Of a stretch of 64,000 nt of DNA, positions 3,001 to 11,400 are shown in pieces; position 1 is the stretch's first letter, and the number at the start of each line of letters is the position of its first letter. The translations under genes were made by a program, and so were the position numbers. This DNA comes from Protoeuglena noctilucae (taxonomy: Eukaryota), in NCBI GenBank assembly GCA_958009085.1, contig OY253668.1, positions 124,001 to 188,000 on the forward strand, given 5' to 3'. The notes under the pieces are model-generated. The model was given only the letters and a program-made list of their open reading frames with translations, made no database searches and had not been told where the DNA came from.

Positions 3001-6000
3001 GGAATCAGCATGGCACAGCATAATGACAGTGGCGAGGCTCACCATCTACCACACACATGCAACCCACCCCACTCAACCCCTCACCAGCGCCGAGTGTGCC
3101 TGGGAGATGAGCGCCCCCCCCGCGTTGCCCCCCCTCTCCACTTAACCATCTACTCCATCTAACCATCTACCACACACATGCACCCCACCCCACTCAACCC
3201 CTCACCAGCGCCGAGTGTGCCTGAGAAATGAGCGGCCCCCCCGCGTTGCCCCCCCTCTCCGGGTGGAATGCCCGGGGAGCTGTGCCGAACGTCTCCTTCC
3301 GGTCTTCTCTCTTGCGCGTGTTCTTCTCCAACTCACTCGCCCACTCCTTCCTGCGAATGACAGGGGCGGTCAATGCCGACAATCGCACAACAACGATCGT
3401 CACCAGCGACCATCTACTACCAACTCCACCCCTCATAGAGCCCCTCGCCCTCATCTCCTAACCCCATCACTGCCCCTCACCCCCCAGTCGCCCCCCAATC
3501 ACCCCCTTCCCTCACCTGCTATCATCCAACCCCCACCCCTCCCTCACCCCCCTCCCCCCTCACCTCCCGTCACACATCCCCCAACCCCTCCCTCACCCCC
3601 AATGCCCCGCAATGCCCCCCACCTGGTGTCATAGAGCGCGTCGATCGCCCCTCATCTCAGCCCCCTCCCCTCCCCTGCTATCAATACAGCCCCCCACCCC
3701 CTCAATAACCTCACCTAGTGTCATAGAGGGCGTCCGTGGTCCCCCGCTGCAGCAGCCCTTCTAAAAAGTACGGCGCATGCACACCGTCCACCGACTTGCG
3801 TGCTTTGGTGAAGTCCGGATTGAGCTTCTTGCGATCTCGAATGCACCGCAGCGCGTCGTCATCCAAGGTAGGGGAATCGGAGCGGTGGCGGGTGGAGCGG
3901 GGGGAGCCGGGGGCTGAGAGGGTCATGACTTGCCGCAGCACGTCGGCATCGGCGTCATCGTTGAGGTAGGCGCCGGGGCCGGGGTTCACGCGCCACTCGG
4001 GGTTGTCGTGGGCATAGTGGGACTGTGGGGGAGAGGGATGCGGGAGTGGGTGGGGTTGATCAGAATGAGTATATGGCACTGGGTGGGTGATGGGAGGGGT
4101 TGTCGTGGGCGTAGTGGGACTGGGGGTGGGTGGAGTGCGAGAGCGTGAGTCAGGTTGATGGGAGTGAGTGGATTGTAATAGATGGTGAGGGGTTCACGCG
4201 CCACTCGGGGTTGTCGTGGGCGCAGTGAGGATGGGAGGGATGACTGGGGGTATAAAGGTGGATTGGTGACGCAGTGCGACCATGACATACCTACAGAGCA
4301 CAATGAAGCACCCTACAACCCCAGCAATGATCGTCCCCTGTCGCCTCTCCCCCTCCTCACCGGCGATATGAGCAGCTTCTCTGCCACGACATTCATACAA
4401 TCATATAAATTGTATAACAATCGTTAGCACCCTCTTATGCCTCGCCACTTTATCTCACCGGGGATATGAGCAGCTTCTCGGCCATGCGTCGGTGCGTGGA
4501 GGACGGCCGGGACTTGGCGGGTGAGAATCGGCCCCCCAGCTGCGTCTTGGGGACTGCCACGGGGTACTCCCCGGGCCCGGGGGTGCGGGGGGCGTCGCGG
4601 TTGACCACCTGAGAGTAGGGAGGGGAGGAGAGAGGTGAGGAGAGAGATGAGGGGCAAGGTGAGGGGAGAGATGGTGGTGTGGGGGAGGGGAGGGGCAGGG
4701 GTGAGGGGTGATGTGGGTGGAGGCAAGGGTGAGGGCGCTGTGCCTGCCTTCCATCACAGTCACAGCCACAGCCAGCTACCACCGCGCTCACGTCACAATC
4801 AACAACAACCGCTCACATCACAGATTACAGATTGCTCCAACACCACCCACCCCCCACCCCTTATAACCCCACCCCCTCACCGCAGCGCGTGGCCCGACGA
4901 CGGGAACCATCTCCCATCCACAACACACCTAGCAACCCCAAACCCATTCCACCCCACTCACCGCGGCGCGTGGCCCCGACGTGAACCGCCACTCGGGCGC
5001 ATCTCCCATTCACTCACAACACATCTAGCAACCCCACCCCCATTCCAAACACATCTAGCAACCCCTCCCCCACCCTCACTCCACCCTCACCGCTGCCCGT
5101 GGCCCAGATGTGAACCATCTCCCATCCACTACACATCTAGCAACCCCAAACCCATTCCACCCCACTCACCGCCGCGCGTGGCCCCGACGTGAACCGCCAC
5201 TCGGGCGCGTCCCCCAGCGTCCCCGCGATGCCCCTCCCCGACCCCGTCAGGTACGCCGGTCCGGGGCTGGAGATGCCGTAGTTAGTGCTGACGGCGTGCT
5301 GTGCGCTCAGGTATCGGTGCTCCTCCTGGCTCCGCTCGGCTGAGCCGAACTTCGCCGATTGCGGCATGAAGCGGCCCCGTGCGTCGTACTTTGGGGCGGG
5401 GGACTGGGTGCCGCGGCGGTCCTCGACGTGGGCGGAGGAAATGAAGACCTTGCCCTCGCTGGCGCTGCGGGTTGGGGTGGTGGGGTGGGTGGGGTGGGGT
5501 GGTGGTGGGATGGGGGGCGATAGTGCGGGAGGTGTGGGGGAGGGAGGAGCGAGAGGGAGTTCAAGGGAGAAGCGAGGGTTGTGTGCGAGTGAGGGTGAGT
5601 GAGATTGGCAGTGGGTGCGGCATGCTGTGTTGGGTGATAGAAGGCACGGGTGACACGTGACCCACACCTCTCAACAGTGCGCAGTCTCTGAATTGACTCA
5701 CCGCAGCCCGAAGGAGTACGCGGGCGCCTTGGAGAAGACGTGGTTGCCGGAGTTATTGATGACTTTCGCCTCATACTTGTCCAAGCCGTGCGTGAGGCTG
5801 AGGGGCGACAGGGTCGCGAGCACCGCGCCCTTCCGCTCGTACTTGGTCCGCACGGGCGTGAACTGCGTCGGGAAGTCGTAGGTCCCGGGGCCCGGAGACG
5901 CGTAAATGGCTTTGCCGTCGCGGTCCAGGAGCGAAGAGCTCGCGTCGGGGAAAGGTTGCAGGCGCGCCGGGGCCGTGTAGTGCGCCGGCGCGGCCGGGCC

Positions 6001-8496: not shown

Positions 8497-11400
8497 TCAT
8501 GCCGACTGCACCGCCAGCTTCTTGAGATGCTCCATAAACACTTGCAGAGACACATCGTCCGTCTGTGGGAGAGAAACCACGAGGAGTGATTGGGAGGCTT
8601 GACAATGCTTGACATGGCTGCAACCATCACATCGCTCCCTCTCCCTCTCCCACTCACCACGATGACATCATTTGCACCAATCACATCCCTCATCTCCTAA
8701 CGTCACTGCTCCCCACCCACGCTCTCACCATGATGACCTCCCCCGTGGCCCCCGCGATGTTGGAGTAGGTGGCGCTGGGGTTGAGCTTGGCGAGCAGGAA
8801 TCGGCTCTGTGACCCGTTCTGATCGCAGTCCACCAGTCGGGGGGAGGGGAAGCGCGCGCGGATGATGGCGCGGGCGTCGATGCGGGGGGCCTCCAGGAGC
8901 TGGGCGAACGAGGCGTGCTGGGGGTCTGTGGATGGTGATAAGAGAGAAGAGGTGAGTGGTGTGAGAGTATGGAGTTGGTATGTGAGATGGAGAGGTGGTG
9001 AGGGTGGTGGGTGGTGTGAGATGGGGATATGTGAGAGATGGGCGAACGAGGCGTGCTGGGGGTCTGGGGGTGAGAGGGAGAGGTGGTGGTGAGAGAGAGA
9101 GAGAGAGAGAGAGAGGAGAGGTGGTGAGGGTGGAGAGAGGGGGGTGGTGTGACAGAGAGAGGTGTTCGAACGAGGCGTGCTGGGGCTCTGGGGAAGTGAC
9201 AGGGAGAGAAGGAGTGGAGTGAAATGAGAAGGAGCTAGGCGAAGGAGTGGTCCATGCCCTGGCATCAACGTTGCATCGATCACACGCCCCTCCATCGCCC
9301 CCCACACACCCCCCATCCCATCCCTCACCGGCCTGGTAGTTGGCTTTCCTCCACTGCGCGATGGTGGTGCCGTGGAATATGACCACCGTGAAGTAGGCGT
9401 CCAACAGCAGGATGCGCTCGGGGGCGATGGATGCCACGTCCAGGAGCACGGCCTGAGTGAGTGGGGGTGAGTGAGTGGGTGAGTGAGAACAGCAGAGTGG
9501 GTGACAGAGGGAGTGGGTGAGACAGTTAGACAGTGAGAGAGGGGGCGATGGAGGCGACATCGAGAAGCACGGCCTGAGTGATGGGGATTGAGAGTGAGTG
9601 GGTGAGAGAAGGAGGGAGTGGGTGAGTGAGCGAGAACAGCAGAGCGGGTGAGTAAGGGGGTGGGTGATTGAGCGAGTAAGTGAGTGAGCCTTCCTTGCCA
9701 CCCTCACCTGCGGCGCCCCGCTGAACGAGTATGCGACGAGGGACGGCTGCATCATAACGATGGCGTCCCCCACGCTCTCCCTCCCCAGCATGATGCGCGC
9801 GAAGGCCGTCTCGTCGGGGGAGTTGCCAAACACCTGGACGAACTGAGAGCGCCTGGGGGGGGTGGGGAAGGGTGGGGTTAGTTTGTGTTACTGTAGTTGG
9901 CTTTGCATGGAAAGAGTTGCCGAAGGCATGGGCGGGGTGAGTTGCGACACGGCCCTCAAACGTTGCGCTGTTATCTAGCACACAGATAGAGCTCCTTGAT
10001 ACAGATACAAACACCACCACCATGCGCCTCGCCTGAGGTTGAACATGAACTGGGGGTAGAGGCTGAGCTGCGGCGCGAGGTTGAAGGAGGCGGGGTCGTC
10101 CTTGCGGTAGTCCCCCAGCCGCTGGCACAGGGCGATGAGCGTGCGGTCCAGGAAGCGGGAAGCATCAAAGTCCTCCTCCGTCTCCATCTGGGGGGAATGT
10201 GGTAGTGATTATTGTAGGTGGCCATCCCCATCCCCATCCACATCCCCACCCCCATCTCCATCCCTCACCCTCCACGACATGAGCCTGGCCATGGCCACGG
10301 CCGCCGCCTCCTGGTCGAATCCCCCAATCAGCTCCCCCACGTTCGACCCGTCCGTCCACTTGCGCGTGATGGTCGAGATGCGGAGGCGGGCCTCGCCAGA
10401 GGGCTGGGGGGGGAAGGGAGGGGTGTGGTGGTGGTGGGGGTGGGGTTGGGGTGGGGGAGGTGTGGTGCGTGGTGAGGGAGGGGTGGTGGGTGGTGAGGGA
10501 GGGGTGGTGGGAGCGGTGGTGGGGAAGGTGAGAGTGAGCGGGCGTGGCGGGGGGGTGGTGGGGGTGGTGTGGTGGGGGAGGCGAGGGGAGCGAGCGGGCG
10601 TGGGGCAATGTCCAGCGCAGCTAATCAGCAGGCACATGGCATTACACGACGCAAAACACAGCCCAATATACCATGAGCAGTCCACCACTCACCAGCAGGT
10701 ACATGGTCTGGAATTGGAGGAAGAACTGCTGGTTGGCGTTGGCGGCCGCGACCATCTCGTCCTTGTTCTTGTATTGCCCAGTGATCTCGAAGAAGACTGG
10801 GGAAGTGAAAGAGGGTGGGGTGTTGTTGTGAGAGGTGGGGTGTTGTTATAAGAGGTGAGATGTACTGGCCAGTGATGACCGGGGGAGAATGGAGGGTGTT
10901 GATGTGAGGGGTGACATGGGGCCAGGGCAGTGGGTGGGGTGTTGCGATTGCGTTGGGTGGGGCGTGACGAGGGGTGTTGCGAGTAAGCGAGAAACCGAGG
11001 CGATGACCCCAACACCCTCGTCTGCCAGTCACTCACTGCACGGCGTGGTGGTGGGCGTGGCGCACGCCAGCCGCCATGCGTTGGTCCCCCCGATGCCCAC
11101 GGGCTTGTCTGACGGGGGTAAACCCTGGGCGCCCTTGCGCTGCGCTTTGGAGCCGGGGCCCAGCAGGCCCTGTGGGGGAGTGAGGGGGAGCGAATGGTGT
11201 GTAATTGGAAGGGATGAGCACGGGTGATGAGGCTGTGGCGTATGCATGGTTGGTCAGGGAACACACATGTGACTGATGTCACATGACTGCCCATGCATCC
11301 CACCCACTGCCACTACCACCGCTGTTGGCATGTCACCCACGTCACTGCCACCCTCACCATGACCTTGATGTCTCTCGACCCCAGCACCTCCAAGTGCACG

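Follow-up and report, generated by a model that had tools for sequence, protein, structure and literature searches.

The 64-kb window analysed here (64,000 nt; positions 124,001–188,000 of the forward strand of contig OY253668.1, Protoeuglena noctilucae assembly GCA_958009085.1) contains eukaryotic, intron-rich genes at a GC content of 63–73%, including an ODF3-like, a SEC23, a Sin3-like, an MTR4-like, an aldo/keto reductase and a glutathione-reductase-like gene. In a number of their introns, the adjoining end of an exon and its splice site are repeated deeper in the intron, and we refer to these intronic copies as echoes. The initial annotation of this sequence had described the echoes as differing from their exons mainly at synonymous sites and had concluded that they were or are under coding selection. 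All of the results described below concern this one window and the 33 echoes retained from it, with a single gene (ODF3-like) supplying much of the signal.

Gene models were built with a small phase-tracking hidden Markov model, for which the window itself served as the training set, and were corrected at three places by eye and with RNA evidence. The frames of echo-bearing exons were checked by comparing single exons with Pfam. Matches were obtained for 10 of the 15 submitted exons, every one in the predicted frame, and the matched families were Sec23 trunk, gelsolin repeat, SHIPPO repeat, Sin3a_C (slightly under the Pfam cut-off), aldo/keto reductase and pyridine-nucleotide oxidoreductase. 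Contigs of RNA from two metatranscriptome runs, X9 and X10, both belonging to a single study, were compared with positions 1–20000 of the window. Among the 15 joints listed of 40, they confirmed, near-exactly as predicted, 11 introns of SEC23 and two introns each of the ODF3-like and Sin3-like genes; parts without RNA cover are uninformative. DNA contigs assembled independently from culture reads (run X1) were also used.

To find the echoes by an objective search, each exon with 12 nt on either side was aligned to both flanking introns, and a match had to exceed the top score among 100 shuffled versions of that intron. This yielded 37 matches at the 180 junctions of 90 introns, 34 of which cross the junction and copy the last or first 20–50 nt of the exon with the splice site. 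Four matches were removed before counting, #12 for being G-rich with a doubtful exon model and #18, #25 and #36 for not spanning the junction. The retained 33 echoes form 23 families (16 donor-type and 7 acceptor-type) in 21 of the 90 introns, and those in the following list are given with the exon border that they repeat.

5158-5216 (−), ODF3-like exon end and donor: echoes 4950-5008, 5081-5116 and 4872-4908 (region 4872..5216), with silent:non-silent differences of 3:0, 4:0 and 1:1, the last with a 2-nt insertion.
4454-4484 (−), ODF3-like exon end and donor: echo 4356-4386, 29 of 31 positions identical and both differences at codon position 3.
3981-4032 (−), ODF3-like exon start and acceptor: echoes 4096-4126 and 4189-4240; exon backed by RNA contig piece 3714-4022.
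3709-3743 (−), ODF3-like exon end and donor: echo 3617-3651, six differences, four of them at position 3.
3206-3350 (−), ODF3-like exon, donor: 121-nt tandem unit in 3038..3260 with echo 3073-3139; Tandem Repeats Finder (TRF) period 121, 1.8 copies, 95% matches.
2593-2725 (−), ODF3-like exon: acceptor echoes 2787-2820 and 2878-2911, donor echo 2498-2529 (region 2498..2911); objective search.
1830-1865 (−), ODF3-like exon start and acceptor: echo 1934-1969; objective search.
820-921 (−), exon of the ODF3-like gene, acceptor: 58-nt array 898..1061 with echoes 953-983 and 1014-1041 (TRF); RNA joint 499/820 confirms the opposite exon end.
70-103 (−), ODF3-like exon start and acceptor: echo 196-229; RNA joint 91/352.
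8897-8934 (−), SEC23 exon start and acceptor: echoes 9035-9072 and 9159-9194, both bypassed by RNA joint 8925/9329.
9420-9460 (−), SEC23 exon start and acceptor: echo 9541-9581, bypassed by RNA joint 9452/9708; frame confirmed by the gelsolin-repeat match.
11834-11900 (−), SEC23 exon end and donor: echo 11761-11828, proximal 25 nt identical and distal part highly diverged; RNA joint 11625/11841.
12874-12907 (−), SEC23 exon end and donor: echoes 12804-12837 (33 of 34 identical) and 12728-12779 (old); RNA joint 12562/12881.
17720-17751 (+), Sin3-like exon end and donor: echoes 17779-17808, 17838-17869 and 17887-17910; objective search and TRF.
27527-27564 (−), MTR4-like exon end and donor: echo 27479-27516; objective search.
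36585-36630 (−), aldo/keto reductase exon end and donor: echo 36537-36582; objective search and Pfam.
55610..55697 (+), glutathione-reductase-like exon end (55638) and donor: echo 55661-55697, offset 51 nt, in frame and open.
56016..56567 (+), glutathione-reductase-like gene: 47-nt array 56016-56144 over a donor, with echoes 56063-56100 and 56110-56144; donor 56444 with echoes 56487-56523 and 56546-56567.

The echoes are thus local head-to-tail duplications of 47–290 nt across exon–intron junctions: each copy lies 47–290 nt deeper in the intron, invariably downstream on the donor side and upstream on the acceptor side. Several were independently called as arrays of 1.8–3.4 units by TRF (901-1061, 3041-3260, 17779-17892, 54899-54974 and 56016-56144), and in the region 4872..5216 a 208-nt unit with one echo already inside was itself duplicated. 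Echoes #3 and #16 lack a matching spacer and are not clean tandem units. Echo-bearing introns amount to 8 of 12 in the ODF3-like gene, 4 of 12 in SEC23 and 4 of 8 in the glutathione-reductase-like gene, with 0 or 1 in each of the other genes. All six examples quoted in the initial annotation are present in the sequence as it described them. We regard it as very probable that the echoes are genuine junction-spanning duplicates.

Two further observations concern these arrays. A 33-nt minisatellite of 3.4 units at 713-824 starts at the donor of ODF3-like exon 820-921, and its units carry that donor together with no more than ~5–8 exon bases; it is an array of the same type, the exon part of which falls below the reach of the search. 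In the 4872..5216 region, the third base of one alanine codon (5173, 5084, 4955 and 4875) gives GCG in the exon and GCC, GCA and GCT in the three echoes, and the occurrence of all four bases at a single four-fold site reflects either a mutation hot spot or several independent sources.

The culture contigs cover 1-2464, 5179-9058 and 9127-15208 without a differing letter, echoes included, and break only at larger repeats. In ocean DNA runs from other samples, 0.92–0.97 of the sampled words of the window are present. A usable splice dinucleotide (GT/GC or AG) is kept in 31 of the 33 echoes. When scored with a splice matrix trained on the predicted sites of the same window, donors reached 6.7 in echoes versus 8.0 at true sites and acceptors 6.3 versus 7.3, compared with −1.7 for background intronic GT. 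In RNA, five joints skip echoes (8925/9329, 9452/9708, 11625/11841, 12562/12881 and 499/820; X9 and X10), and none of the 15 joints listed uses an inner site. The outer splice site, which adjoins the exon directly, is the only one that these RNA contigs use, although contigs drop rare forms and low-level use of the inner sites may go unseen.

The distance between echo and exon is a multiple of three in 10 of the 33 echoes. Five of these 10 are open, and use of their inner sites would insert 48 nt in the MTR4-like gene, 48 nt in the reductase gene, 51 nt in the glutathione-reductase-like gene and 90 and 138 nt in two others, all in frame and free of stops. Out-of-frame donor echoes are equally conserved (11 of 242 differences at codon positions 1 and 2, 27 of 125 at position 3), and the exon parts contain five indel runs (6 gap columns), one in each of five echoes. 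The out-of-frame offsets, the conservation of out-of-frame echoes and these indels make translation in place unlikely, and the suggestion in the initial annotation that the echoes are really used as alternative exon ends finds no support here.

When differences shared among echoes were counted once, the 33 echoes showed 109 differences from their exons, of which codon position 3 accounts for 68 and positions 1 and 2 for 20 and 21, respectively. Under this lenient scoring, 62 of the 106 differences in complete codons (58%) are silent and 44 are non-silent; the other three lie in partial codons. With #12 restored (34 echoes), the silent:non-silent ratio is 66:53, and it is 72:67 for all 37 matches. 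A free copy alone is expected to give a silent share of 25–35% (roughly 27%), and a free copy whose exon tolerates silent changes alone 39–52% depending on the mutation spectrum, or 42% with the spectrum fitted here. This agrees with the earlier statement that a neutral copy beside a constrained exon should be under half silent (expectation 0.42, simulated range 0.32–0.52).

The size of the excess depends on the alignment ends. Scoring at +1/−1, +1/−2 and +1/−3 gave 50:34 (60%), 34:11 (76%) and 25:5 (83%) silent:non-silent differences, respectively, whereas +1/−0.5, which extends into unrelated sequence, gave 126:269 (32%). Non-silent differences concentrate at the distal ends of the lenient alignments, with ratios of 36:16 within 0–19 nt of the junction and 10:16 at 20–29 nt. 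The 'three quarters silent' of the initial annotation is thus reproduced under +1/−2 scoring and is reduced to 58% under lenient scoring. Of its individual examples, the SEC23 echo 9541-9581 differs from exon 9420-9460 at five sites, all at position 3 and all silent. A codon-degenerate SEC23 pattern matched only this exon and echo, and none of 100 shuffles gave two matches. The counts of four of four silent in ODF3-like echo 5081-5116 and two of two in each of the echoes at 953, 4356 and 27479 were likewise confirmed. For echo 3617-3651, 'two of two silent' is correct for the two differences nearest to the junction, out of the six in total.

Strict trimming is not the origin of this bias. When the exon part of each echo was swapped for a copy mutated under neutrality and the procedure was repeated under three scoring schemes, the simulated silent share was 0.42–0.43, and the real share was reached in 0 of 400, 300 and 300 simulations. 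A likelihood model with free transition and GC-to-AT biases, which allowed no non-silent change in the exon lineage (the assumption that favours neutrality most), estimated the non-silent rate in the echo lineage at 0.52 of neutral (95% interval 0.36–0.71, p = 0.0008). Since both biases were fitted and the excess persisted, neither explains it. Bootstrapping by family gave a rate of 0.32–0.77 of neutral with P(rate ≥ neutral) = 0.0002; 17 families lie above the neutral expectation for silent share and 6 below (sign test), and the pattern is reversed in the two wrong frames (20:86 and 16:88). By gene, the ratio is 29:10 for ODF3-like, 20:20 for SEC23 and 33:34 for all genes except ODF3-like, where the non-silent rate is 0.71 of neutral (p = 0.17). 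A contrast between two-fold and four-fold sites in transitions and transversions (Fisher p = 0.0125) was not used, because the neutral model predicts the same. Taken together, we consider the silent excess over neutral expectation likely to be real.

The intron part of the duplicated unit, which is free in both copies, provides a yardstick for these differences. Over the 33 echoes, divergence is 0.067 at codon positions 1 and 2 (42/630), 0.221 at position 3 (71/321), 0.135 at the six splice-site bases (26/193) and 0.266 in the remaining aligned intron (288/1083), with 55 gap columns in the intron parts and 6 in the exon parts. In a free echo, divergence at positions 1 and 2 should be at least half of that in the intron. 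Position 3 has diverged as far as the intron, which means that the echo is neither simply a conserved element nor homogenised with the exon. Divergence at position 3 is also compatible with one common level across echoes (dispersion p = 0.21). Seventeen echoes have an intron alignment of at least 25 columns. Among these, there are 8 differences in 328 sites at positions 1 and 2, where a free echo predicts at least 45, as well as 38/168 at position 3, 266/968 in the intron, and 1 gap column in the exon parts against 53 in the intron parts.

Base context does not account for this pattern: in each of the CpG, other G/C and A/T classes, positions 1 and 2 are four to five times less diverged than position 3 and about three to five times less than the intron. 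A faster exon lineage beside a conserved echo is contradicted by comparisons between echoes (13 pairs in 9 families, partly non-independent), which show the same position-3 bias (15/201 at positions 1 and 2, 32/103 at position 3, or 32 of 47 differences at position 3). We infer that changes in the echoes have been about five times rarer where they would alter an amino acid than at silent sites or in the intron. Silent and intron sites drift freely but amino-acid positions, frame and splice site are preserved, so that exon and echo, judged from their sequences, look like two working copies of a gene border. The claim of coding selection is therefore partly upheld: a coding-type filter is visible between echo and exon and between echoes, while the proposed use of the echoes as exon ends is not borne out. 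The copies carry a coding-like pattern although they are probably not translated in place.

In the reading that we favour, with a probability of roughly 0.35, the echoes would derive from another version of their exon end, one that had diverged but still worked. Unequal recombination or template switching would have added such a version of the junction, taken from another haplotype, a homeolog or the like, as the second unit, so that the echo would have been a working exon end until shortly before. Both copies would have been under protein-level selection while they diverged, and most of the divergence between echo and exon would be older than the echo itself. The echoes are probably untranslated in place and their free sites are unhomogenised, and we accordingly take most of the divergence to predate the echo. 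After copying, the echo would decay freely, which would account for older echoes that look neutral. Constraint on the exon would raise the expected silent share from ~27% to 42%, and the remainder, to 58–76%, would come from the echo. The common level of position-3 divergence suits a single source, and this reading appears to us to need the fewest new assumptions. It corresponds to the 'copying from diverged functional alleles' proposed in the initial annotation, which fits the numbers best and for which no donor copy was found.

Several points weigh against this reading. The donor copy was absent from a protein-guided scan of metagenome contigs with ODF3-like exon 3715-4022; the only locus from that scan (L001, 52.7% GC, 43% match over 33 residues) was judged unrelated, and a codon-degenerate pattern scan of viral contigs gave no match. 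Present-day diversity seems to be low, as hinted by the culture contigs (0 other letters over >15 kb) and, more crudely, by the ocean words (0.92–0.97). Where an array has two or three echoes, their relationships are star-like, each echo being nearer to the exon than to its sister echo, which would require several donors. Moreover, position-3 GC is 0.80 in echoes versus 0.90 in exons (44 GC-to-AT against 12 AT-to-GC differences); this loss looks like decay in place, which should also have struck positions 1 and 2. Echoes in 8 of the 12 introns of one gene would mean many exchange events for 6 kb. Finally, the division into the 17 echoes described above and the other 16 was made after the data had been seen and is exploratory.

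One alternative, which we consider unlikely, is second-hand selection in place, in which exon end and echo exchange sequence by gene conversion or unequal crossover, and echoes with a mutation that alters an amino acid or shifts the frame, being sources of bad exons, are purged while silent variants are tolerated. The echoes form tandem arrays, the units of which are known to exchange, and within the 208-nt doubled unit, echo 4872-4908 has two differences from the exon and five from its supposed source 5081-5116, which hints at conversion. Conversion from a pseudogene into a working copy is harmful, and concerted evolution of yeast duplicates is limited to coding parts, as stated in the available part of a review (PMC3924837). 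However, the free sites are unhomogenised (0.22 at position 3, 0.27 in the intron), so that exchange can be no more frequent than point mutation, and the 'gene conversion cycles' of the initial annotation fit poorly for the same reason. Theory further suggests that such selection needs the product of effective population size and exchange rate to exceed 1, in which case mutation–conversion balance should keep silent divergence near polymorphism, which seems to be very low here.

Ordinary neutral decay is about as improbable in our judgement. On this view the echoes are dead copies, and the excess stems from exon constraint, from chance and uneven mutation, and from where the alignments of a small sample were made to end. 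The ratio of 72:67 for all 37 matches is a weak test (non-silent rate 0.70 of neutral, p = 0.036), the genes besides ODF3-like fall short of significance as given above, and the 16 echoes without a long aligned intron part show 34 differences in 302 sites at positions 1 and 2, where 28.9 are expected, and 33/153 at position 3, which fits neutral decay. In these 16, 24 of the 34 differences come from #17, #19 and #28–#30, which are very old or barely above threshold. When changes were polarised with multi-echo families, seven events could be placed safely on the branches of young echoes, three silent and four non-silent, and two on the exon branch. Nevertheless, the simulations never reached the real silent share, the family bootstrap and sign test (17 versus 6) point the other way, positions 1 and 2 stay four to five times below position 3 and the intron within each base-context class, and the bias recurs in echo–echo pairs.

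It is also conceivable, although we give it little weight, that the echoes are kept under protein-level selection as spare exon ends. Some hidden use, whether in an isoform or life stage outside the sampling or as templates when the exon border is repaired, would then expose their codons to selection. If true, there would be constraint in DNA that is absent from ordinary mRNA, and about a fifth of introns would carry such spares.

Function in place, as alternative exon ends in unsampled isoforms or life stages or as RNA or DNA elements that need the conserved positions of the exon, is less likely still. Echo splice sites are nearly as strong as true ones, five echoes would yield the in-frame, stop-free insertions noted above, and contigs would hide rare isoforms. 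However, the 15 RNA joints listed, all from X9 and X10 of one study, involve outer sites alone, 23 of 33 offsets would shift the frame, out-of-frame donor echoes are no less conserved and five echoes carry exon-part indels; constraint at the nucleotide level would slow position 3 too, yet position 3 equals the intron in divergence. An assembly artefact, in which a second haplotype was stitched beside the first, would give allele-like, coding-type divergence but is hardly credible, because independent culture contigs traverse exons and echoes without a difference and the copies lie 47–290 nt apart, within read length, with some arrays of three units.

The echoes form a natural experiment in which the same 30–40 bases occur once under protein selection and once supposedly free, with the supposedly free copy still marked by selection. 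If this holds genome-wide, either the arrays would record frequent unequal exchange between diverged working gene copies, and so offer an inexpensive marker of hybrid or strongly structured ancestry in a marine alga of the uncultured type, or selection would reach non-coding copies by an undescribed route. Because about a quarter of the introns contain strong decoy splice sites, the organism is also a good system for studying how the spliceosome chooses the outer site.

In the literature searched, neither echoes of this kind nor their codon-like divergence are described on a genome scale; the human F7 gene is a single-gene precedent. In F7 intron 7, the first unit of a 37-bp variable number tandem repeat lies over the exon 7/intron 7 boundary, the pseudo-donors are silent and the most upstream site wins, according to the accessible part of the report (PMC1557585). 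The likeness to the window consists in a junction-spanning tandem repeat in which functional-looking pseudo-donors follow the true donor; here, too, the first unit spans the junction and the inner copies keep the splice consensus, and the outermost site may likewise be the only one used. F7 differs in being a single locus with units reported as identical at the splice consensus, and its abstract mentions no codon-position pattern, whereas the window has echoes in 21 of 90 introns, at acceptors as well as donors, with units diverged by ~20% at free sites and a codon-position pattern.

Duplicates subject to gene conversion are comparable in that a dead copy lies by a working copy and could be reached by selection through exchange; the reviewed duplicates retain similarity in coding parts while non-coding parts diverge, as far as the available text of that review goes (PMC3924837). 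In contrast to such concerted evolution, which keeps silent sites alike, silent sites in the window are as diverged as the intron. The window lacks the likeness at silent and flanking sites that concerted evolution by gene conversion would leave, with 71/321 at position 3 and 288/1083 in the intron versus 42/630 at positions 1 and 2. In Rogers' model, introns are reportedly gained by tandem duplication of an exon segment with AGGT. The duplication over a splice-site-like sequence and the unchanged mRNA are shared with that model, in which, however, the whole new intron is a duplicated exon, whereas in the window an existing intron gained an inner copy of its own border. Insertion of an introner can duplicate part of an exon at the intron border as a target-site duplication. 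Introners are described, in the accessible portion of the source, as transposon-borne introns of marine algae (PMC9860276) and resemble the echoes as intron-related repeats of such algae. The repeats in the window differ as local copies of the neighbouring exon end that are far longer than a target-site duplication. Introner or transposon-derived introns were rejected, since no dispersed intron family was detected (0 long-range, non-low-complexity matches of ≥50 nt at ≥78% identity within the 64 kb).

The echoes matter for annotation as well, since gene finders read some of them as coding: in the glutathione-reductase-like gene, the initial gene model read on through 55639-55689 into the echo, adding 17 false residues that repeat GMSVAKTL.

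On the sense strand, the introns inspected are G-rich 3' of the donor and C/T-rich 5' of the acceptor, with abundant low-complexity sequence. Pelagophytes have far fewer introns per gene than the genes of this window. GC replaces GT at about a fifth (~21%) of the predicted donors (GCGAG in 18 and GCAAG in 3 of 100), and RNA joint 13048/13295 confirms one GC donor. This share is above the 14–17% of GC-AG donors given for pelagophytes and below the roughly 56–60% given for Emiliania huxleyi in the available parts of published reports.

Beside the N gap at 15755-15954, the contigs contradict the window at seven single-base sites in 16038-16487. At six of these, two to four runs agree against the window (culture DNA and one to three RNA runs), and at site 16038 the evidence comes from culture DNA alone; the first exon of the Sin3-like gene thus probably contains small assembly errors in the window sequence. 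For positions 1–20000, contig pieces that are merely 95–99% alike number 50 of 73 in X1 and 65 of 94 in X11, and the value for matched sequence continuing into unlike sequence is 0.77 in X1 and 0 in X11. Such pieces may reflect matches in low-complexity sequence, or else contigs from related strains or gene copies. Surrounded by the intron-rich genes, a divergent intronless pair of histone genes, H3 (−) and H4 (+), is present at 51151-52101.

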